From an uncultured Desulfobacter sp. (GTDB taxonomy: Bacteria; Desulfobacterota; Desulfobacteria; Desulfobacterales; Desulfobacteraceae), in assembly GCA_963665095.1 (NCBI GenBank), contig OY762069.1, positions 1,664,001 through 1,728,000 on the forward strand: a stretch of DNA of 64,000 bases, written 5' to 3'. The stretch's first letter is position 1, and each line of letters opens with the position of its first letter. The notes beneath the pieces were generated by a model that did no database searches, was not told the origin of the DNA, and was given only the letters and a program-made list of their open reading frames with translations. This document shows, one piece after another, positions 31,678 to 45,170 of this stretch. Position numbers and translations under genes: made by a program.

Positions 31678-32723
31678 TCCACCCCCAGAAAATAGCAGTT
31701 AAGTCCTGACCCCACCCCTAAAAACGCCACAAAATCGTTGGGAGCGAAAAAACCGCGTTCATCGGCAATGGCCGCTGTAATGGGCAGGGAGACAGTTCCC
31801 ACATTCCCCAGAAAGGGAAAGGTGACAAAATCCTTTTTTCGATCAATTTTCATTGTTGAGTAAAATTTGTGGTGGTGCCCCTCCCCCACCTGGTGGGCAA
31901 TGAATTTATCCGGTTTGTCCGGGGGCAGGTTGAACTCTTTCCTGAACATCTGGTAGGTGTCCATTGCAAGGCCCACCCCCTGATCAAGCACCGCCTGGGC
32001 ATTGGTGCGCATGATCACCCGGGAGTCTGTGGGCATGCCTTTTTCTTCGTGTCCCCAGTAACATAAATCCCAGTGTTGGATGGTATTATTCACCACCCCG
32101 CCCTTCACGGCATGGCGCGGGGTATCAGCCCTGCCAAGGGTTCCGTCTGTGAGCAAAATGGCCGCAGCCCCGGAACCGCCGGTCATGGTGGCAACAGCCT
32201 CCCGGTAGAAATCAATGCTTTTGTGCAGGTTAATCTCTGTGATGGTGGCATCCACGATCTGCCGGGCGGATTCACAGGAGGTGACAAGCCCTGCTTTAAT
32301 GTGGCCAAGCTGAATCTCATTGGCCACGTGGACCATGCCGGTAATCATGCCAAGACAGGCAGATTTAACATCATATACATGGGCACCCGGCCCCACCCCG
32401 ATCTTATCGGCCACAGCACAGGAGGTGGCGGGTTCATACCCGTCCTGACACACCCCGCAAAAGCACAGTGCACCAAGGTCTTTGGCACTGATACCCGCTT
32501 CATCAAGTGCCCTTTGGCCGGCCACGGCCGCATGCTCTGCCAGGGTATGGTCCACATCCCAGTAGCGCCGTTCCCGAATCCCGGTCAGGGCCTCCAGCTG
32601 GCCGGGCTTAAACCCCACGGTATCGAAAAACGGCTGCAGTTTTTCATCTATCTCCAGGCTGGTCACGATATTGGGTGCCAGCTCATAGCCAAAGGATTCA
32701 ATAAATACCTTGTCGTATCTCAT
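31671..32723 (-). CDS. oleA: OleA head-to-head acyl-CoA condensing enzyme (thiolase/FabH fold)
   Basis: TGIRERR, EPAT (Glu), ACLG (Cys), HQVG (His), GNVG (Asn), GSGLNC. Confidence 0.85.
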   Translation of the reverse strand: MRYDKVFIESFGYELAPNIVTSLEIDEKLQPFFDTVGFKPGQLEALTGIRERRYWDVDHTLAEHAAVAGQRALDEAGISAKDLGALCFCGVCQDGYEPATSCAVADKIGVGPGAHVYDVKSACLGMITGMVHVANEIQLGHIKAGLVTSCESARQIVDATITEINLHKSIDFYREAVATMTGGSGAAAILLTDGTLGRADTPRHAVKGGVVNNTIQHWDLCYWGHEEKGMPTDSRVIMRTNAQAVLDQGVGLAMDTYQMFRKEFNLPPDKPDKFIAHQVGEGHHHKFYSTMKIDRKKDFVTFPFLGNVGTVSLPITAAIADERGFFAPNDFVAFLGVGSGLNCYFLGVEW

Positions 32724-35700
32724 CTTTTTCTCCAATATTCCTCAAGACATTCACGGGATGCACCGGAAAGTTTCATCCCCATATCTTTGTACAATACAAT
32801 CTCAAGGTCGTCGGAAAACATATGGGCATCGGCCGTCACAAAGGGAACCGGGTCAAAACCCATTGTCTTTATTTCAATATCATACCGGGCCTTTTGGGTG
32901 TAACGCGTCACAGGTCCACGGCATTTCAGGTCACTTTCATTATCCGCCAGCACATCATAGTGGACGTCATCATCCGGCAGTATCCAGCCCATGCGCTGGA
33001 CAAACACCCGCAGGGTATGGGCGCAGCACTCGTACATCAAGGTGCCCGGCATCACCATGTCATCAATAAAATGGCAGGTTAAAAACCAGTCGTCCGGATG
33101 GATATCTGCTTCGGCCACAATACGCCCTAAGCCAAACCGGCCGCCTTCGGGATCAAGGTCCAGCACCCGGTGAATCAGTCGCATCCGTTCGCCGGGCAGC
33201 CACTGGTTCCGACCAGTGCGCTTTCCTTTAAAATCGGGTCCGAATGCTGTTTCAAGATCACCATTACGTAAGGCGTCCACCTGCTGATCTGTACAGGAAA
33301 TCCGTTTTACCGGGGCAATCCAAAGTGGGCGCTGCTCTGCAGGACTCTGTTCTTTGTCCTCTTTTTTGAGGATAATGCCGCCGGAATTTTCAACTTCCGC
33401 TTCGGTGAAAAATCCTGCACATCCGTCTCGCATGGATATAAAAGGCAGCTGGTCGATATAGCCTTTATAGTGAAAAAAAAACAGATAAATCTCGCCCTGC
33501 CGTAAAAACCGGTCTATCTCAATGTGATATTCGATTGTTTCCCCGGGATCGGGCAGGGTGCGGTGAAAGGTCACCCTGGCATCCAGAAGTCTGTATTTTC
33601 GTTTTCCCTTGACCACATGGTCGATGCCTAGCCAGGAACACAGAAACAGATCGGCCTGGCCCGCCTCGATGGAGATGGACACAGGGGTTTTCCCGCCATC
33701 CAGGTACCATGCATTTTCATGCACATCGTGCTGGGTAACTACTTTGCCCCGGGTTAAAGAAAGCTTTTCTCCTTCCACTGAGATGATCCGGTCCACCAGC
33801 ATCAGGGGATCATCCGGCAGCCGGACCCGGACCGGATAGGTGTCAATGATTTTAAAATCGTCACCCAGGACATTGCCGGCCTTTCCCACGGCAAATTCAC
33901 GGCACTGATCGCGGTCCATGAACACCCTGGGTGCTTCAACCGGCATTACATCCTGTGCAGGCGCTTTGGAGATCACAGGGTCCGGTTGAAAGGGCGCCAT
34001 GCCATGGCCGGTCAGAGGCCCTGCATTGGCAATGGCTGCAAGCTGTTCGGCCATGGCCCGGGTATTCCGGCTTGAAAAGGTTAAAAACTGTTCATGGGCT
34101 CTTGCTGTGGCCGCCTGGGTTTCAACAAACAGGGCAGTAACGCTGTCGGAAATCACCTGAGAAGGTATTTCAGGAGGGTCAGCCAGCGACATGAGGGTTA
34201 CGTCGTCCGAACCGACCTGGATACTATTATTTGTATCTGTAATTTTTCGGGCATATAGTAACGACTCTGGAATCACAGGCCGGGTCACAGGAATCCGGAC
34301 CACTGTCCCCGAATCTTTATTCGTGGCATTTTTTTGCAGGTTGGAAGATAGGTGCGACCCCAAAGACTCTTTTCCTGTTTTGCGACCACTTGTTTCAGGG
34401 CAGGCTGTCAGAACAGCATGGGCCGCAGCCCCGTCCCGGGTCAGGCACCCGGCCATCACGGTTTGCGGGGCATCGGCGCTTTGGGACAAAGGGCAGGGAT
34501 TGTACCCGGTGTAAAGGCAAAGTGCCGCTGTTGCAAGGGTAAAAAGCCCTGCCGAAGCGCCGGTGTGACCGATGAGCGAGGCAGGACAAAATACCGGCAC
34601 CGATGGATCTTCAGAACCGGTGTGCCCGAATCCGGCCAGTTCTCCGGCACCCAGGAAATGGGAACGGCTGTGGGTCACCGCACCGAAGCTGATGTCAGAG
34701 AAATGAACCCCTGCGCTTTCAAGTGCCTGCTGCAGGGAACGCTTTACGGCATCTGCTGCGGGCCTGAGCTGCCGTCCGTTGTCTTCGCTTGCCAGGGGGG
34801 CACCCCCGGCCCGCCCTGCCCCGTTGACCACGGCATAAATCCGGTCCTGATCCCGCAGCGCTGCATCCAGCGGTTTCAGCACCAGGGCGGCCGCCCCTTC
34901 TGACGGCAGCGTCCCTGGATCCAGGCCGGACAGGGCCATATTCCGGGTAAAGCTGCGAATATCCCCGGCAAGGTCCACGGCCGCGCATAAAAAGAGGTCT
35001 GTCTCCCGGGCAGACAATGATTTAATGGCCACATCAACAGCAGCAAAGCCGGATGCCGCATCCGCAGACAGGGTAAAACAAGGACCGCCAAGTTTAAAAG
35101 CCCGGGCCAGACGTGAGGCCACAATACCGCCAAGCGCGCCCAGGGTGGTGTCAAAATCCAGGGCCGGCCCTATTTGCTCTAAAAGCTCGGCCGGAACACT
35201 TTGTTTATGATTTTTGATCTGCCATCGCAAATGATGGTCTGTAGCCCCAAAATCAAATTCAATGCCCACAGCACAGCCCATGTTTTCCCTGCAGGGGTCC
35301 AAAGCGGTCGGTTTGGGCGAAATCCCTGCATCTTCAAGAGCAGTCCGGGCAGCATTGAGCATGACCAGGTGCTGGGGCAGAATCCGGGAAAGCTGGTTGG
35401 GCGGAATATTAAAATTTTTGAGATCAATGCCAACATCCTCCATGAACAAGCTTTGGGCATTGAGTAGTTCCGGAGGCAGATGATCCGCTCTTCGCCAGCG
35501 GGAATGACCCGGTCGGGATTCAAGCTTTTTTTGTTCCTGCAGCAGGTCTGCAAAATCGGCAAGCGTATCACCCGCACCGGAGACCATTCCCATGCCCACA
35601 ATGGCACAGGGGATGGTGGGCGCAATCCTAACGGGCGCGGCCGACACCGGGTAGCGGCAGGCGTCAGGTACAAAACCTTCCACCAAAAGATGGGCATTGA

Positions 35701-37048
35701 TGCCGCCAAATCCAAAAGCAGAGACAGCGGCCCGCCTAAGCCCGTTATTCTCTCCGGGCCTCCAGGGTTCCGGCGTCTCCTGAACGTGGACACCTGTACC
35801 GTTTAGCGGACTGTCATCAGGCAGGCAGGAAAAATTCAGGGACGGCGGCAGCATTTCGTCTTCCATGGCCATGATGGTCTTGATAAATCCGGCAGCCCCT
35901 GCGGCTGTCAACAGATGACCAATATTGGATTTTACCGACCCTATGGAAAAACCAGCCCCTTTGCAATGGTGTCTCTCCAGCATATTGCAGATGGTCTGTG
36001 CCTCCACCTGGTCGCCTTTGGGGGTACCGGACCCATGGCACTCCATATACTGGATATCCCCCACAGACCAGCCCGCCATTTTATAGGCCGCAGACATGGC
36101 TCTGATTTGGCCGTCGCTGGCCGGGGCCACCAGGTTCCCCTCAATATCATTGCTCACGCCCCACCCCTTGATCACGGCGCGGATGGTATCTCCGGCAGCC
36201 AGGGCATCGTCCAGGCGTTTGAGCAGAACAAGCCCTGCCCCCTCTCCCACCACCAGGCCGTCGGCATCCCGGTCAAAGGGAGCGCACCGCCCCGATGAGG
36301 ACAATGCCTGCAACTGAGTAAAACCCACCTGGGTATATAAGGATTGGGGCCGGGATACCCCGCCTGCCACCATGGCGTCCGAGCGGCCGAGCTGCAGTTG
36401 TTCGCAGGCAAGCTTAATGGAAAACAGAGAGGATGCACAGGCCGCGTCCAAAGTAAAACTGCCTCCTTCAAGTCCCCATACCCGTGCGGCAAGCGCAGCA
36501 GGAAAAGAGAGCATGCTCGCCCCGAAGGCCTTGGGTCCTGTGAGCATCATAGGGTTGGCGTCCAGGAAAAGATGCCGGGTAAGATCCGTTGCACCCGGCG
36601 TGGGAAGTGCAATGGCCGCAAGGATTACACCGGTGCGCCGCCGCACCTCCCGGGAAAGCCGGGCATTGGCCATAAGCCGTCCCCCGGCTTTAAGAACCAG
36701 GTGATGAACCGGATCAAGGTCAACGAAAAAATCGTTATCCAGACCATGCCCGGGGAATTCTGGTTTTATAGGATGTGCATCAGATAAAAAAGGGGTTAAA
36801 GGGTCAAACAAGGCCGTAGTAATCAAACCGGCAAAGGGGCTGCGTGCCAGATCCGGCCCCGGGGTACCCGAACCTTGATCCACCATCATCTCCCGGCATC
36901 CGCCCCAGCGGTCATCCGGCACCTGGATCACGGCACTTTTTTTCGCCATGACATTGGCACTGAACTGCTCAACATTCCCGGCACCCGGAAAGATGCCGGA
37001 CATCCCCACAACTGCTATATCAACGGGTTTTAAGCTCATGGAGCCCAT
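32720..37048 (-). CDS. PUFA-synthase PfaC-like subunit: KS + inactive KS (CLF) + pseudo-DH + FabA-like DH
   Basis: DAACASS/ECHGSGT/KSNIGH triad; second KS has SADAASG (no Cys); WFLTCHFIDDMVMPGTLMYE DH motif. Confidence 0.85.
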   Translation of the reverse strand: MGSMSLKPVDIAVVGMSGIFPGAGNVEQFSANVMAKKSAVIQVPDDRWGGCREMMVDQGSGTPGPDLARSPFAGLITTALFDPLTPFLSDAHPIKPEFPGHGLDNDFFVDLDPVHHLVLKAGGRLMANARLSREVRRRTGVILAAIALPTPGATDLTRHLFLDANPMMLTGPKAFGASMLSFPAALAARVWGLEGGSFTLDAACASSLFSIKLACEQLQLGRSDAMVAGGVSRPQSLYTQVGFTQLQALSSSGRCAPFDRDADGLVVGEGAGLVLLKRLDDALAAGDTIRAVIKGWGVSNDIEGNLVAPASDGQIRAMSAAYKMAGWSVGDIQYMECHGSGTPKGDQVEAQTICNMLERHHCKGAGFSIGSVKSNIGHLLTAAGAAGFIKTIMAMEDEMLPPSLNFSCLPDDSPLNGTGVHVQETPEPWRPGENNGLRRAAVSAFGFGGINAHLLVEGFVPDACRYPVSAAPVRIAPTIPCAIVGMGMVSGAGDTLADFADLLQEQKKLESRPGHSRWRRADHLPPELLNAQSLFMEDVGIDLKNFNIPPNQLSRILPQHLVMLNAARTALEDAGISPKPTALDPCRENMGCAVGIEFDFGATDHHLRWQIKNHKQSVPAELLEQIGPALDFDTTLGALGGIVASRLARAFKLGGPCFTLSADAASGFAAVDVAIKSLSARETDLFLCAAVDLAGDIRSFTRNMALSGLDPGTLPSEGAAALVLKPLDAALRDQDRIYAVVNGAGRAGGAPLASEDNGRQLRPAADAVKRSLQQALESAGVHFSDISFGAVTHSRSHFLGAGELAGFGHTGSEDPSVPVFCPASLIGHTGASAGLFTLATAALCLYTGYNPCPLSQSADAPQTVMAGCLTRDGAAAHAVLTACPETSGRKTGKESLGSHLSSNLQKNATNKDSGTVVRIPVTRPVIPESLLYARKITDTNNSIQVGSDDVTLMSLADPPEIPSQVISDSVTALFVETQAATARAHEQFLTFSSRNTRAMAEQLAAIANAGPLTGHGMAPFQPDPVISKAPAQDVMPVEAPRVFMDRDQCREFAVGKAGNVLGDDFKIIDTYPVRVRLPDDPLMLVDRIISVEGEKLSLTRGKVVTQHDVHENAWYLDGGKTPVSISIEAGQADLFLCSWLGIDHVVKGKRKYRLLDARVTFHRTLPDPGETIEYHIEIDRFLRQGEIYLFFFHYKGYIDQLPFISMRDGCAGFFTEAEVENSGGIILKKEDKEQSPAEQRPLWIAPVKRISCTDQQVDALRNGDLETAFGPDFKGKRTGRNQWLPGERMRLIHRVLDLDPEGGRFGLGRIVAEADIHPDDWFLTCHFIDDMVMPGTLMYECCAHTLRVFVQRMGWILPDDDVHYDVLADNESDLKCRGPVTRYTQKARYDIEIKTMGFDPVPFVTADAHMFSDDLEIVLYKDMGMKLSGASRECLEEYWRKR

Positions 37049-38521: not shown

Positions 38522-38790
38522 TTGAATCAAAGGATTAGAATGCGATATCACATGACAGGATTGTCGGAGCAGGACACCAGTAATTATATTATGTCACGAC
38601 TTAAATGGGCCGGCTGTTCAATTCCTATATTTAAAGAGGATGCTTTAGCGGCCATCCGGGAATACTTATACGATTTTCCAAGGCTGATCGGGAATATCTG
38701 CGAAGAGGCCCTGACCTATGCCATGTTCTGTGAGCGGAAAACAGTGGATGCGGACATGATACTAAAAATTAAGATGACAGACGATATGAC
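38522..38790 (+). pseudogene. ExeA-like AAA ATPase C-terminal fragment (transposon-associated type)
   Basis: QRI.MRYH..GLS..DT..YI..RL..AG....F...A.....PRLI.NIC..AL; no Walker A/B. Confidence 0.7.
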
Positions 38791-38837
38791 TACAAATCAA
38801 AATTATTGGCTCAACCGAAAACAGCATAAAATTCAAG

Positions 38838-39030
38838 TCAACACCTGTGGTAACGGTCAATGGGACGTTCGTCTATGCCGGTATGCAGTTTATGGTGATA
38901 ATCGTCATGCAGCCACAGGTCAAGGGCTGCATTGAGTTCTTCCAGTGTCAGTTTTTCGGTAAGGGATGACAAAAACCGGTCCCGGACCGTACGAAAGACC
39001 CTCTCAATTTTCCCTCGGGAAGGTGAATCA
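38838..39030 (-). pseudogene. DDE integrase/Mu-like transposase fragment
   Basis: PSRGKIERVFRTV...F......EELN..L..W...YH...H.GI...P..RY. Confidence 0.75.
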
Positions 39031-39411
39031 TAGGTTTTTCGCCGGCGTCTCACTTACCACTGAGGTTGGTGCCTTTTCAGCAAACTTTAAACCCTTATAT
39101 AGGATAAATCCAACACATTTCTTAAAAGCGCTCAAACTGAGCTGATAGAAATAAATGTCGCCTTTTCCGGGGGGGTCACCAGAGGCGGGAGTATAATATA
39201 TTAAATTTACTGGTGGCGTTTCCGGGCTGACACAATATATGGTGGCCGGGGATTTTTTGAAAAAGTGTTCAATCATACCGGTACATTACAAAATGATTGA
39301 TGGCGTGAATTTGTAAGAGAATTTCATTCAATCTCACACAGAGTCACGACTCAATCATTTTGAGGTAATAGTTTCGCTTTTCCTCTGAATTTTTAATTTT
39401 TGAATTCAAAC

Positions 39412-39509
39412 AGTGAAGCTCCTCATAAACAAAAATTACCATCCATAAATGGTGATATTCTTAAGATCAATCTGCAATAAAGCAGTTGAATGTTATAAGG
39501 AGCTTCACT
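39412..39509 (+). promoter_or_regulatory. Hairpin sequestering the transposase RBS
   Basis: AGTGAAGCTCCT (39412-39423) is the exact reverse complement of AGGAGCTTCACT (39498-39509) just before ATG 39510. Confidence 0.75.
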
Positions 39510-40958
39510 ATGAAAAAAAGAAACATTTTTCAAAATCAAAGTCAAGAAATCCTTACTCTTTTTGAAATGGCAAAAGACAGGTCCAAGGTCATGTGCATCC
39601 CTATGGATTATGCCAAAAAAGATCATGTGGCCATGTTTTGCAATGGGAATGGAAAAATCCTTCGAAAGCCCTTTTCCATAAAAAACACACCTGAAGGAGT
39701 GGAATATTTAATTGATCAAGTCACAAAATCTTGTCACCATCATGGGATTGATATTAAAAACACTCTTTTCGGCGGGGAGGATTGCGGGACATATGCGAAT
39801 AATTTCATTGAAGCTCTACGTTCGGAAAATTGGCTGGTGGCAGGGGTAAATGCACTTGATGCCAAAAGACACCGGGAAAATATTCAAGCGAGCACGGACC
39901 GGTTAGATCTATTGGGTATCAGTAAAATGCTTCTTAACTGTAGTGGGAATTGTTCTCCGGCTCAATCCGGAATTTATTGGAATTTGAGAACGCTTTGTCG
40001 AGAAAGACAGAAATTGGTGGTCACGAAAAGCGGTGTGAAAAACAGGGTTCACACCATTGTAGATCAGATTTTCCCGGGCTTTTTAAATGAAGCCAAAAGT
40101 GGAATTCCTCCATTTTCACCGGCATCATTAATATTGATGGAAGACCGATTCAGTGTGCATCAGATCCGGCGCCGAAGGCCAGCCGCATTAGTGAAAAACC
40201 TTGCTAAACAAGGTTTACCGAATCCAGAGATCCGTGCAGAAAAACTTCAACGTTATGCCTCCCAGGTCCTCAGACCCCAAAAAGATCATATTGTTACATT
40301 GCAGATGTCATTAAAACAGCAAGTCAGATTAATTCTATGCCTCCAAGAAAGCACTGACCAATTAGAACGAGATATCGCGGCACATTCAGCGCAGACCCCA
40401 GGCGCATTCTTAACCACCATTCGAGGAATAGGTTTAATTTTAGCTGCCGGTGTAAGTGCTGAAATTGGAGATCCCGATAAGCAGAAATCTTTGACCAATC
40501 TGGTGTCTTATGCCGGCATAATTCCGCAAATAAAACAGACCGGAGGGGAACAAGGGAAAACTCAAGTGATTAGAGTCGGTAAGCGGTGTAATCGTATTTT
40601 AAAAAATTATGTCGTCCAGTCCGGCTTGCATATGGGGATTCATGGCCCCGACGAATTAATTGCCGACTATAAACGAAGAGAAGCCCGGGATCAGCATGCT
40701 GATTTCGGCATGGCAAGAAGATTTCTGAGAATGGCAATGTGTTTGATGCGGACCCACCAAGCTTATTTGCCAAAGCGCTTAAGAAGCCAACAGTGCCCGA
40801 TGGAAGAACGAGGCCGTTATTACCAAGAGGCTTGGCCGTTACTCATGGATAAATGGAGAAGGGTCAAGAAGTTAGATATTGCCTTCGATAAAAAAATGCC
40901 CTTGGGGCAATGGCGCAACATGATACAGGAGCTTTATGACATACAATTAAGGTTGTAG
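39510..40958 (+). CDS. IS110-family transposase/recombinase (482 aa)
   Basis: RuvC-like DEDD motifs MDYAK, GGED, TDRLD; C-terminal L.TIRGIG...AEIGD...YAGI.P...QTGG. Confidence 0.88.
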   Translation: MKKRNIFQNQSQEILTLFEMAKDRSKVMCIPMDYAKKDHVAMFCNGNGKILRKPFSIKNTPEGVEYLIDQVTKSCHHHGIDIKNTLFGGEDCGTYANNFIEALRSENWLVAGVNALDAKRHRENIQASTDRLDLLGISKMLLNCSGNCSPAQSGIYWNLRTLCRERQKLVVTKSGVKNRVHTIVDQIFPGFLNEAKSGIPPFSPASLILMEDRFSVHQIRRRRPAALVKNLAKQGLPNPEIRAEKLQRYASQVLRPQKDHIVTLQMSLKQQVRLILCLQESTDQLERDIAAHSAQTPGAFLTTIRGIGLILAAGVSAEIGDPDKQKSLTNLVSYAGIIPQIKQTGGEQGKTQVIRVGKRCNRILKNYVVQSGLHMGIHGPDELIADYKRREARDQHADFGMARRFLRMAMCLMRTHQAYLPKRLRSQQCPMEERGRYYQEAWPLLMDKWRRVKKLDIAFDKKMPLGQWRNMIQELYDIQLRL

Positions 40959-41009
40959 ATAAAACATAAGCTTGATTTGTTGTCTCATATCAAAATTTTA
41001 ACGATTTTT

Positions 41010-41180
41010 GCGGACGGGATGGCTTCGTTGATACTGTCGCATTGGCTCAGACTAACGAGTCTCATTGACGGCTACTAATAGAATGTCCACCATGTCCGCT
41101 CCAATACTTTCATTATGGCTCAAAGGTGCTCTGATCCTCGGAAATTATGCCGAGAGATCTTGTTATACCAGTATGCCAAA
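41010..41180 (+). ncRNA. Putative bridge/seek RNA with target-binding and donor-binding loops
   Basis: Two stem-internal loop-stem modules; loop segments match the element ends and right flank (see findings). Confidence 0.72.
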
Positions 41181-41499
41181 TTTTGGATTTGTAGGGCATG
41201 GTCTTCCACCAGTAACGCAAATTATTTAAAATCGATGACTTTGGGATACAATTGATCTTATTGTGTATCATTAAAAAACCGATCATATCGGACAGGGATG
41301 GTACGTCTCAAAAAAATATTGAAAATATTCCTTGTTTTCTCTCTGGTGCTCTATTAGTGCTTGGTCAACTATGTGACAAATTGAAGAAAAAAATTGCAAG
41401 CATTTTCAGATGATGTTAATGACTTTATCATTATTAGTTTGAATATTAATACAATTCTGACTATGCTTACTTTTTACACCTACCAGAGACAACCATAAT

Positions 41500-44469
41500 A
41501 TGAGCAGCTTGATCGACAACACTTTCAGAAATGAATTGAACCGTATGGAAATGCTTCGCCCTGAAGAGGAGTTGTCGAGTCTTTATTTTGTCGCTGACAA
41601 AAATGAAGTACAACCGTGTATACGTATTGCTCTTGAACAGGCTGAGCGTTATAAGGCTGACGCAGTTTTTTTCCGAATTTTTCCTATTGGTGACAACCGT
41701 TCCCCGCTTCCCCAGATTTATATTTATTATGACACTGCGCTGTCCCTTGACGATACCTATTATGCCGGGATACACCGCCGCCTATGGAATGCGGGCATTC
41801 CCCCATTAGTATTCATCCTGACTGCCGGGCAGGTGAAAATCCTCAATTGTCGGCAGAAACCTGAAATTGACAAAGACTCCAAAAAACCTGTCTTCACTCC
41901 ATTCCGTACACTTGAAAGGGTAATAGCCGTCGAACGGGCATTTGCCGCTCGGGAAATTGCAGCCGGAACACTCTGGGAAAATACAAAATTTAAGAGTGAC
42001 TTCGTACTTGAAAAAACCGCTTACTTCGAGTTACTTACTCACCTCAAGTCGTTCCGACAGAAACTGCTTTTATTAAAAATTTTGTCAGAGCCTACTGTCA
42101 ACCGAATCTTGGTTATGGCGATTTTAGTCAAATATTTGAATGATCGCCAGGATTCTTCAGGAAACCGTGTTTTCGCGGAAGGGTTCCTGCGTCGATTTTC
42201 CAGTGCGAATAATGATGATATTGAATCTCTCTTCATAGAGAAGGGGAGTTGTATTAAGCTGTTTGATCATTTAAGCAGGCATTTTAATGGTGGCATTTTC
42301 GAATTGACCGATAGTGAAAAAAAGGAATTGTATCAGGCTGATCTCTCACCGATTGCGGTCTTCCTGAAAGGAGATCAGGACCCGACAGGTCAGATGCTCT
42401 TTTGGCCGCTCTATTCGTTTGAAGACCTTCCGGTTGAGTTAATCAGCAATATTTACGAGGAGTTTCTGGCAAAAAAAGAGGATGGTAACGGTGTGGTTTA
42501 CACGCCACCAATGATGGTTGATTTTCTTATAGATCGTTGCTTGCCTCTTGAAGCAAGTACGCTTTCCCGAAAAATTCTCGATCCTGCATGTGGTTCCGGT
42601 GTTTTCCTGGTTGGCGCTTTCAAACGCTTGATACAATGCTGGCGTGTGGCCAACGACTGGAAACAGCCGACTTATCGTGATTTACAGGCAATTCTTAAGA
42701 ATAGCATTTTCGGAATCGACAAAGCGCCCGAAGCAGTTCTGGTAACGGCTTTCAGCCTCTGCGTTGCGCTTTGCGATGAATTGGAGCCGTTGATTATCTG
42801 GAATGAACTTAAATTCGACAACCTGCAAAATAGTAATCTCCAGGATAGAGATTTTTTTGAAATTGTTGAATCTGGGGAATTCAATAATCACTTCGAGTTA
42901 ATTATCGGCAACCCTCCGTTTGACAGCAAACTGACGACTAATGCCGCCAAGCGGATTGAGAAAACTGAAGCCAAAGTTCGTCCCAAACTCCCAGATACTC
43001 AACTTGCGCTACTTTTTCTTGAGCAATCCTTCCGACTTGCCCGTAAGGATGCAACGGTCTGCCTGATTCAACCGGCGGGGCCGCTGCTGTACAACGGTAA
43101 CGCACTGCCTTTCCGCGGCCACCTGTTTGAGCAATTCGCCATTAATCAGGTATTTGATTTCACTCCGCTGGAAGGGGTTCTTTTCAAAGCAAAGGTTGCG
43201 GCAGCGGCGATAGTTGGCTTAAATAAGCCCCCATCGACAGAGAAAATTCAGCATATAACAGTACGTAGAACCAAGGCGCTCAAGGAAAAACTTCTGTTTG
43301 AGTTGGACCCCTATGATTTCCACTGGATACCTCGTGAATCCGTAAAGCAGAAACAATATGTATGGAAAACCAATCTGCTTGGCGGCGGAAGGCTTCACCG
43401 AATGATGGATCGCCTAATTACCGGCGTTAAAACATTGGGCGAGTATCTGGCAGAGAAAAAGGATAATAAAGGCTGGCAATTTGGTGAAGGTTTTAGTGTC
43501 GGATGCGGAAGTTATTTAAATGAGTTGTCCAACGCAAAAGAATTAGCAAAATTATCGCCCAAAAAACTAACGTACCAGTTTAAATTAAAAAGACCCCCTA
43601 AGCTTGCTTCTTGGATAACAGGGAAAAACAATGTTCCGCCAAAAGCTTTGACAAAAGATGGCATTGATTGGAATTCAGTAAAGAGTATCAATAAACTTTT
43701 TTTTGAAGAACCACGCAGGACGACTCAACTCATTTTCTCCGCTCCACATGTGTTAATCAGAGAAAAAGTTGATGGATTGGCTATCCCCGCTGTTTACACG
43801 GACAAAAAATTGGTGTTCACTAATCAAGTTATTGGGGTGTATGCACCTGAGAATGAACAGAATCATTTGAAAGTTCTTGCTGAGCGCTTAAACGACTCCA
43901 AACTCTTTGGGATTCTATCCATATTGCTTAGCGGGAGAATACTGGTCGGGCGATCAAACTCTTTGTATGCAAGAGATATCATGGCATTACCTTATCCTGA
44001 TGATCTGCAGGATATAGATCTGAATTTCTGGGAGCAAGCCCTTGTCGATGACATTGATAACTATCTCGTCGATTTTCGGCGCAGCGGTGAAAAGGCCGCA
44101 ATTTTATCCGAAACAGATGAATCCGACCTGCACAATTTCGGCAAAATGTACTGTAGTATTCTTAACCCTGTGTACAAACAATTCCGCCCCTTAGACCCAA
44201 TTCAAATTGGTTCCTTTATCTGTTACCCTTTTTGCTACGGAGATACGCCCACGATTGAAATGCCTGAAGAAAACAAGGTCGTTCCATTTCTTGATAGTTT
44301 GTTACACTGCCAACAAGGCAGCCGCCTGTTTGTAAACCGCATACTTCGCATGTACGAACAAAACGTAATCTTTATGATCAAACCGAATCAGAAGAGGTAC
44401 TGGCTACGTTCTATAGCTCTTCGCGACGCTGACGAGACATTAGTTGATCTCTTGGAACAAGGATATTGA
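41500..44469 (+). CDS. N6-adenine DNA methyltransferase, Type IIG/Eco57I-like architecture
   Basis: ELISNIYEEFL, GVVYTP, ILDPACGSGVFL (motif I), IIGNPPF (motif IV), TRD-like C-terminal half. Confidence 0.88.
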   Translation: MSSLIDNTFRNELNRMEMLRPEEELSSLYFVADKNEVQPCIRIALEQAERYKADAVFFRIFPIGDNRSPLPQIYIYYDTALSLDDTYYAGIHRRLWNAGIPPLVFILTAGQVKILNCRQKPEIDKDSKKPVFTPFRTLERVIAVERAFAAREIAAGTLWENTKFKSDFVLEKTAYFELLTHLKSFRQKLLLLKILSEPTVNRILVMAILVKYLNDRQDSSGNRVFAEGFLRRFSSANNDDIESLFIEKGSCIKLFDHLSRHFNGGIFELTDSEKKELYQADLSPIAVFLKGDQDPTGQMLFWPLYSFEDLPVELISNIYEEFLAKKEDGNGVVYTPPMMVDFLIDRCLPLEASTLSRKILDPACGSGVFLVGAFKRLIQCWRVANDWKQPTYRDLQAILKNSIFGIDKAPEAVLVTAFSLCVALCDELEPLIIWNELKFDNLQNSNLQDRDFFEIVESGEFNNHFELIIGNPPFDSKLTTNAAKRIEKTEAKVRPKLPDTQLALLFLEQSFRLARKDATVCLIQPAGPLLYNGNALPFRGHLFEQFAINQVFDFTPLEGVLFKAKVAAAAIVGLNKPPSTEKIQHITVRRTKALKEKLLFELDPYDFHWIPRESVKQKQYVWKTNLLGGGRLHRMMDRLITGVKTLGEYLAEKKDNKGWQFGEGFSVGCGSYLNELSNAKELAKLSPKKLTYQFKLKRPPKLASWITGKNNVPPKALTKDGIDWNSVKSINKLFFEEPRRTTQLIFSAPHVLIREKVDGLAIPAVYTDKKLVFTNQVIGVYAPENEQNHLKVLAERLNDSKLFGILSILLSGRILVGRSNSLYARDIMALPYPDDLQDIDLNFWEQALVDDIDNYLVDFRRSGEKAAILSETDESDLHNFGKMYCSILNPVYKQFRPLDPIQIGSFICYPFCYGDTPTIEMPEENKVVPFLDSLLHCQQGSRLFVNRILRMYEQNVIFMIKPNQKRYWLRSIALRDADETLVDLLEQGY

Positions 44470-45170
44470 GCTCCATGAAAAAACATCCAACCGGACGGAT
44501 GCTTGCAGGCACAGGCACCTTACTTGGTCCATCTCAAAATACACAATTCAGCATGGTTGTTACGTTTATCAAGGCAAAACTTCCCATATTTGCGGAATCC
44601 ATTTTGAAAACTAAAATTTGTAGTGAAAATGGCCTAAACAGCCGACTTTCTCGTTTTATTACCAATGCTGCCGCCCAAGAATTTTTTTTTGCGAATCGTG
44701 AGTGTATGGAAGATGAAACCTATGGAAGCAGTCCCGCAGTTGATATCGGCGTTTATCTTAAAATGGATGATACTGAAATCGATCCCCCAATGATTACGGT
44801 TTTTGAAGGGAAAAGGCTTACAACAAAATTGACTAAAAAACGACGTCGCGAATATGTCATAGGGCATGAAGAAAGTGGGAAACATATTCGCTGCGGCGGC
44901 ATAGAGCGTTTTAAGCTTGCCATCCACGGAGCCAGACTCAATCGTGCCGGAATGATAGGTTATATTCAAGATGGGACATCTGACGATTGGCAAAAGAAAA
45001 CCAATACATGGATTTGCGAGCTATGCAACCAGCCTTTTAATCCGGTATGGTCAGAGCGTGAACAGCTTACGCGGCAAAAATCCGATGAACGAGTTATTGA
45101 ATATTCATCAATTGTAAACCGTATCGACAGCGTACTTCATCTGGCTCACCTGTGGATTGACCTTTCCTAA
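44466..45170 (+). CDS. Hypothetical protein, probable PD-(D/E)XK nuclease; start uncertain (44466/44475/44499)
   Basis: PAVDIGV...VFEGKRL (D...ExK), EYV, GGIERFK, GMIGY; overlaps or abuts the MTase stop. Confidence 0.65.
   Translation: MSSMKKHPTGRMLAGTGTLLGPSQNTQFSMVVTFIKAKLPIFAESILKTKICSENGLNSRLSRFITNAAAQEFFFANRECMEDETYGSSPAVDIGVYLKMDDTEIDPPMITVFEGKRLTTKLTKKRRREYVIGHEESGKHIRCGGIERFKLAIHGARLNRAGMIGYIQDGTSDDWQKKTNTWICELCNQPFNPVWSEREQLTRQKSDERVIEYSSIVNRIDSVLHLAHLWIDLS

Follow-up and report, generated by a model that had tools for sequence, protein, structure and literature searches.

The window (the whole stretch of DNA that was analysed, 64,000 nt) very probably holds, at 39280..41352, an autonomous insertion sequence of the IS110 group, that is, an IS110-family element with a bridge-type guide RNA lying 3′ of its recombinase gene; all features below are on the forward strand unless marked otherwise. 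Bridge-type guide-RNA transposons have been known since 2024, and bridge recombinases are under development as genome-writing tools, with structural work nearly all on the short IS621 branch. The element and its homologues form a fully mapped natural set: the ends are defined, guides have been reprogrammed many times, cores read CT, TT, CA or a mismatched CC, the handshake bases follow the target, and Ser and Thr replace each other at the nucleophile position. An IS110 recombinase with a bridge- or seek-type RNA in its 3′ end had been proposed in a preliminary description, all quoted strings of which are found in the window where it placed them; Pfam domains and the covariation of guides with flanks both uphold that proposal.

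The ends were located by comparison of homologues. A scan of genome contigs, mostly Desulfobacterales-type assemblies, gave 54 loci, of which 53 were used (L053, with 31 residues, was left out). In the upstream end alignment conservation sets in sharply with a dinucleotide that precedes GGTAC (window 39278-84), and in the downstream one it ceases past GGTGCT plus a dinucleotide (window 41351-52). The element so delimited is 2,073 bp long including the right-hand CT core, and the 23 elements in which both ends were found measure 2003-2112 bp. The dinucleotide at 40 left junctions was CT in 25, TT in 13, CC in 1 and TA in 1, and at 32 right junctions CT in 24, TT in 7 and CA in 1. All 23 complete elements have a 2-nt core at both junctions, identical in 20, which amounts to no target duplication. 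In the window the left-junction core is CC (39278..39279) and appears to derive from the target, with element-free copies of the surrounding repeat reading CC here; CC is found at this junction in all four close relatives (window included), although the guide reads CT.

The four guides each have a counterpart at the edges of the element. The left target guide (41025..41035, a variable 9 nt plus the core-binding CT) is identical at 4/7 positions, with one more by wobble, to the left target arm in the flank (39271..39277), and the right target guide (41074..41083; guide 41074-79, core-binding AG 41080-81, handshake bases 41082-83) is complementary at 6/6 positions to the right target arm (41353..41358). 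The left donor guide with its core-binding CT (41124..41132) is 8/9 identical to the element's right end, where homologue alignment puts the left donor arm and donor core CT (41344..41352), and the right donor guide (41163..41173; guide 41163-69, core-binding AG 41170-71, handshake TA 41172-73) matches at 5/7 positions the right donor arm formed by the element's left end (39280..39286).

We then compared guides and flanks across the homologues, with guides, ends and flanks pulled by patterns written after the alignment had been seen; loci that did not fit these patterns gave no row, rows without either partner were uncounted, and 29 of the 54 rows entered each target-guide test. The left target guide was identical to the left flank at 149 of 203 bases (mean 74.1 and maximum 110 over 20,000 shuffles), or at 93 of 140 with one row per guide sequence (50 when shuffled), and the complement of the right target guide agreed with the right flank at 117 of 145 bases (shuffled mean 45.6, maximum 73), or at 87 of 110 with one row per guide sequence (34 when shuffled); because the homologues are kin, these shuffle tests overstate significance. 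The signal stood in a single register on either side, with agreement of 0.73 on the left against 0.18-0.41 elsewhere and of 0.81 on the right against 0.23-0.35. The right core complemented the core bases of the right target guide in 29/29 rows and those of the right donor guide in 31/31, including the 7 TT cores and the CA core, while the left-junction core agreed with the core-binding bases in 26/31 and 24/28. As the element ends are nearly invariant, support for the donor loop comes from identity, the left donor 6-mer equalling the right end exactly in 22/31 rows and with one difference in 9/31, together with this core covariation (31/31). Lastly, the two handshake bases past the right donor guide complemented the final dinucleotide of the left flank at 43 of 56 positions (shuffled mean 27, maximum 39). 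By these comparisons module 1, whose guides covary with the flanks, is the target loop, and module 2, whose guides match the element ends, is the donor loop, as the preliminary description had assigned them.

Guides vary even among close kin: locus L073, 98% identical to the window's copy, has one base changed in the right target guide and a change at the corresponding base of its flank. The core has also changed naturally in L031 (TA at the left, CA at the right), where both top-strand guides have shifted to TG and both bottom-strand guides still end in T; in L008-L011 and L013-L015, which have TT at both junctions, the CT of the left donor guide has been retained, with a G facing an A in the donor. 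In L028, L030 and L002 the left flank agrees less well with the element's own guide than with that of another element (the flank of L028 equals the guide of L029), which may reflect either guides acting in trans or chimeric assemblies.

The predicted bridge RNA extends approximately from 40990 to 41240, basal stem included, as judged from pair counts in an alignment of 38 of the 45 rows reaching the 3′ end; the other 7 were too short or lacked the anchor, and rows L039, L041 and L046 are misaligned in their 5′ part. In line with the two folded modules of the preliminary description, 41005-41105 and 41105-41190 form more stable folds than their dinucleotide-shuffled versions (z of -3.21 and -2.06), and the 3′ end as a whole shows the same weakly (z of -1.76). 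No Rfam family reached gathering level in the guide-RNA region, and a match to mir-395 was set aside as chance (20.2 bits against 56). Each guide is preceded by a stem with a bulged A, at 41019, 41068, 41115 and 41155, which is present in 38, 38, 38 and 36 of the 38 rows, and five bases after this A, immediately before the guide, stands a U in 35, 38, 38 and 36 of the 38 rows.

Four segments take part in two pairing schemes, which compete for 41094-97. Segment a (41010..41022, with the bulged A41019) can pair with segment b (41086..41099) in a local fold or with segment d (41205..41222) in a nested fold, in which b pairs instead with segment c (41194..41202), outside the coordinates of the preliminary description, and d seals the target loop so that it encloses the donor arm. 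The six-pair a:b outer stem is 100% paired, with compensatory changes at two pairs, while the b:c helix (41090-97 with 41194-201), which RNAalifold picked unaided, is 93.6% paired over eight pairs, with compensatory changes at four. With b:c formed, 41017-22 pairs with 41206-10 and the basal stem encloses the whole RNA. Both folds scored above every one of 500 shuffles and every slid control, although kinship alone can be enough to pass this test; a candidate further helix, TCCAA/TTGGA, falls at a register slip of the alignment. By these counts the local and nested pairings are both conserved and mutually exclusive.

The alternative with the largest remaining share, which we regard as a serious minority reading, is that the working RNA consists of two separate hairpin modules as in IS621, corresponding to the local fold, with the nested pairing incidental or an inactive storage form. 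It would account for the full pairing and two compensatory changes of the outer stem, for segment b being a perfect partner of the bulged-A stem in the window, and for constrained energies in the window that lie less than 1 kcal/mol apart (-63.7 for the local and -64.6 for the nested fold); in addition, RNA of the target loop alone makes up 90.4% of the bound CazIS110-1 transcripts according to part of the text of 10.1101/2025.10.25.684509. Across the homologues, however, the stem with the bulged A that precedes the left target guide can make all five of its pairs with segment d in 36, and with segment b in 26, of the 37 distinct sequences, so that the stem is broken in 1/37 with the distal partner and in 11/37 with the local one, which pairs mostly by G-U (Watson-Crick in 7/37 and 10/37 at two positions). 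The b:c helix has its compensatory changes at half of its pairs, one pair alone contributing 10 cells, and the nested energy is the lower in 27/38 rows, a count that includes the three misaligned rows and an inner-stem constraint one register off in both folds. Most likely, then, the full-length RNA takes the nested fold, in which the donor arm is a branch of the target loop. The outer stem GCGGAC/GTCCGC of the preliminary description thus stands as a conserved pairing with two compensatory changes, but it has a competitor in b:c, and the nested fold is the likelier for full-length RNA.

The local fold would suit a short RNA of the target loop alone, as in CazIS110-1. A bolder proposal, to which we give only a modest chance, is that in this long, largely Thr-nucleophile clade the RNA is a two-state switch between a:b and a:d plus b:c, which would choose a stand-alone target loop or a nested RNA and hence the reaction; the fold would then set whether donor-target recombination, excision or target-loop-only transfer takes place. 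Should a nested or two-state fold prove true, it would show that a bridge RNA can work without keeping its two loops in hairpins of their own, and that the reaction is open to control through the folding of the RNA.

The recombinase (39510..40958, 482 aa) matches PF01548 (DEDD; 73 bits, cut-off 29) and then PF02371 (42.6 bits, cut-off 21.3), whereas its score with the NCBIfam equivalog NF033542, 122.2 bits, is below the cut-off of 140, which indicates a divergent branch rather than a different family. Residues D33, E90, D130 and D133 are invariant in 20 of 20 aligned homologues, and E90, D130 and D133 align with IS621. Automatic alignment of distant relatives places A or S instead of D at the fourth acidic residue in P0128, P0139, P0146, P0161, P0163, P0165, P0172, P0184 and P0205. 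T344, found in 19 of the 20, aligns without gaps in the motif with a Ser at residue 243 of the 328-residue IS621 chain, which would be S241 if that chain carries two extra residues; this stretch is without significance alone (i-Evalue 9.4), and the AlphaFold2 model there falls below a pLDDT of 50. At the G--P----S(t)G motif, 120 close homologues have T in 106, S in 12 and an unmatched residue in 2, and of 150 distant rows listed, 99 extend over the motif, with T in 57 and S in 42. The S or T state is unclustered on a quick tree in which 23 of 77 rows are unlabelled (13 changes; 54 of 500 shuffles as low). A Thr nucleophile as a novelty was considered and rejected, a TG motif being already described in part of the text of PMC11187229.

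Among solved structures, a phmmer search with the single protein gave no matches and a profile search gave three, the best being IS621. The AlphaFold2 model is poor (mean pLDDT 61.8, pTM 0.39, Tnp domain under 50), and for this reason its Foldseek matches to IS621 and ISCro4 (E of about 2e-5, TM 0.18) show kinship alone. The enzyme family comprised 1,073 proteins among 8,000 candidates scored and occurred in 26 of the 151 genomes sampled from the family, the element's own included. The best matches in a plasmid search had 25-27% identity and were labelled merely IS110 family transposase.

The insertion target is a dispersed host repeat outside the element (39181..39279), a stretch that recurs without the element elsewhere in the same genome, among other places at G000 6006665 with 99% identity over 99 nt; there the sequence goes on like the window's right flank, agreeing at 11/11 positions on the left and 10/12 on the right. 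At E <1e-7, 11 copies came out of a search whose profile had itself been made from them. Besides the window's own, copies lie at G000 6006709, 3354789, 2467280, 337337, 3649534, 374763, 5620885, 5838346, 314970 and 6182443. The repeat is about 60 bp long, longer in some copies, and intergenic, and several copies keep an intact site with a CC core. A short palindrome within it is reminiscent of an NrdR-type operator. In assembled contigs of public runs, pieces matching the element start at 39270-39275 (X10, X12 and X15) and stop at 41354-41358 (X8, X10 and X12); in one contig of X10, 39277 and 41353 are separated by the letters ACC alone. We read this contig as an element-free allele with a CC core, to within one base in the tool's count, though it may be a paralogous repeat copy. 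The right flank (41353-41432) is matched in run X10 by many contigs at high summed depth, which makes it a repeat in other genomes, though it is nearly unique in its own.

These observations bear on whether the copy is decayed and inactive, with the RNA matches as relics, which we consider improbable. The element is single-copy in its own 6.9-Mb genome, where no other copy of the enzyme was found, and several homologues carry stops; moreover, the left guide matches its own flank at 4/7 positions with a CC target core against a CT guide. Weaker matches occur among the 29 homologues (three at 2-3/7 and one at 1/7), and L057 matches its own left flank at 7/7. Against decay, the window copy is an open frame with all catalytic residues present, near-identical copies at other sites are present in public contigs together with the element-free allele, and relatives at 92-98% identity occupy different sites.

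Membership in the IS1111 group with a seekRNA, as the preliminary description had hinted, has very little left in its favour. The guides do lie in the 3′ end, whose non-coding region of 392 nt exceeds the 230 nt of the left end, an IS1111-like trait, and a Thr-Gly motif is described for IS1111 enzymes in part of the text of PMC11187229. Against it, the 11-13 bp sub-terminal repeat is missing, the best run being 6 nt in the window and 6-9 nt in 23 of 23 elements, the bottom-strand guide precedes the top-strand guide, which is the IS110 order, and the enzyme has 482 aa as opposed to the 330-350 aa given in that text. The missing repeat and the guide order put the element, a member of the IS110 family, outside the IS1111 group.

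The least probable reading, with practically no chance left, is the register of the preliminary description, in which the element ran from 39192 to 41353 around a TA core and a guide TGTTATA paired with TATAATA: the strings exist, and within 39000-39509 no site other than 39192 comes within one mismatch of that 7-mer, but this register is already refuted by homologues that are unconserved upstream of 39278 and begin at 39278-84, by the element-free recurrence of 39181-39279 elsewhere in the genome, by TA occurring in 14 of 32 right junctions in that register where the dinucleotide two bases earlier gives the CT, TT and CA counts above and register scans peak, and by contig breakpoints at 39270-39275. 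TATAATA is present at 418 places on a single strand of the genome, so its match to TGTTATA is a chance one, and the fourth guide is shifted, the real right donor guide reading TTATACC-AG (41163-71). The right end at 41353 was correct to within one base of 41352, and homologue alignment, proposed there as a check, confirmed that guides covary with flanks and moved the left end of the copies to 39280. With left end and core misplaced, the donor junction GGTGCTC-TA-TAATA and the predicted circle junction fall as well. Two of its guide matches are more than chance: the module-2 left guide equals the right end as GGTGCT-CT (41125-32), and the match of ACTAATA to the right junction survives once taken out of the TA-core register, as ACTAAT(AG) at 41074-81, the reverse complement of CT plus ATTAGT. 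The CT that it saw ahead of the guides is made up of a stem's end and the invariant U and is not the core, and the core-binding bases lie at the 3′ ends of the guides.

The neighbourhood contains other genes. Directly 3′ of the element, 41500-44469 encodes a 989-aa type IIG restriction-modification-like protein (PADLOC, E of 4e-47); the next ORF, of 234 aa (44466-45170), matches no family in Pfam, NCBIfam or PADLOC. On the other side, a 137-aa fragment (38522-38935) aligns, below the cut-off, with the C-terminal portion of TIGR03015, a model of ExeA-type ATPases, and is probably the remnant of another mobile element, and a 1,442-aa ORF on the minus strand (32720-37048) is polyketide-synthase-like by motifs.

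Joining the ends would also create a promoter. The putative -35 hexamer (41332..41337), recognised by comparing joined ends, and the putative -10 hexamer (39282..39287) would come together only when the ends are joined, and ends joined by script gave TTGnnn, 17 nt and TAnnnT in 22 of 23 elements. Junction promoters are reported for IS621 and ISPpu10 in text passages of PMC13626964 and 10.64898/2026.03.19.712850. A promoter and terminator scan of the linear element found 7 promoter-like sites against 5.9 expected, none of them useful. Just past the junction promoter, the 230-nt left end contains a long hairpin (39289..39362), self-complementary in blastn and in the fold and coinciding with a conserved block in homologues, which may control translation or read-through. 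No circle joint was found among the contigs of 4 public runs, and contigs cannot show absence. In run X15, RNA by its record, a contig over 40995-41247 has a depth of 16.3 and gene contigs have 2-4.9; we do not count this depth as expression, because the copy is a variant, contigs show neither level nor strand, and a 6.7-kb contig over the left end has a depth of 22.

Taken together with what is known of IS621 and its relatives, from which transcription, protein binding, strand exchange and the role of Thr344 are extrapolated here, the element would move by bridge-RNA-guided recombination. Its joined ends would form the donor site, consisting of right end, CT core and left end, and at the same time a sigma-70-type promoter, from which transcription would run across the recombinase gene and on into the 3′ RNA. 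The recombinase would bind four stems, each with its bulged A five bases ahead of the invariant U and the guide; the first loop would pair with both target strands around the 2-nt core and the second with both donor strands. The DEDD site and the Thr344 hydroxyl would cut the top strands 3′ of the core, after which strands would be exchanged, and the handshake bases would favour insertion. Top strands cut in this way would leave the target core at the left junction (CC here) and the donor core at the right (CT), and the CC-left, CT-right asymmetry of the window fits such cutting. The handshake pairing and cut geometry of IS621 are described in part of the text of PMC11208158. The later steps are uncertain, as two recent preprints describe copy-out and single-strand routes and not cut-out with a Holliday junction (10.1101/2025.10.25.684509; 10.64898/2026.08.31.748434).

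In our literature search, with figures and supplements outside its scope, neither this clade nor a nested or switching bridge-RNA fold was found described; no IS110 paper with a catalytic threonine, threonine nucleophile or phosphothreonine appeared by title or start of abstract, and nothing linked an IS110 bridge RNA with Desulfobacter or a three-way junction. Part of the text of PMC11208160 notes that bridge RNAs fold in diverse ways and can have their donor guides in multi-loops, and 32,190 bridge RNAs with predicted guides and 86 models are given in part of that of 10.64898/2026.10.21.760802; passages of 10.1101/2025.05.14.653916 and PMC12288879 were also covered, and a term search of 10.64898/2026.08.14.744561 gave none. 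The class is known, and the branch and the fold are apparently undescribed. The preliminary description's uncharacterised programmable recombinase holds for this branch alone, in a class that is well described.

The nearest relatives by arrangement are the IS110-group elements with a downstream non-coding region, which as far as the consulted text of Siddiquee et al. 2024 goes (PMC11187229) share the 3′ RNA, the IS110-type guide order and the lack of a sub-terminal repeat. Two long non-coding ends, as found here, occur according to the same text in 26 of over 350 elements surveyed, and the 482 aa of the recombinase, compared by text, exceed the 315-455 aa quoted there. The IS1111 seekRNA elements ISEc11, ISKpn4 and ISPa11 resemble the present element in their downstream guide RNA, in allowing Thr and in inserting into a repeated host motif; the element differs from them in lacking the sub-terminal repeat, in its reversed guide order and in its much longer enzyme. 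CazIS110-1 likewise has a bridge RNA with separate target and donor loops, and its target-loop-only RNA offers a reason for the locally closed target loop seen here, whereas a nested alternative fold was not found in the part of its text consulted (10.1101/2025.10.25.684509). With IS621 and ISCro4 (IS622) the element shares the DEDD and Tnp domains, the CT core, handshake bases, four bulged A's, a putative junction promoter and the guide order left target, right target, left donor and right donor. Passages of PMC11208158 describe four A's flipped out at the corresponding places of IS621, together with syn G's. In contrast to IS621, the RNA here lies 3′ of the gene instead of 5′, the enzyme has 482 aa as against a 328-residue chain, a Thr stands at the position of Ser241, a U takes the place of the syn G five bases after the bulged A, and the RNA may adopt a nested fold.
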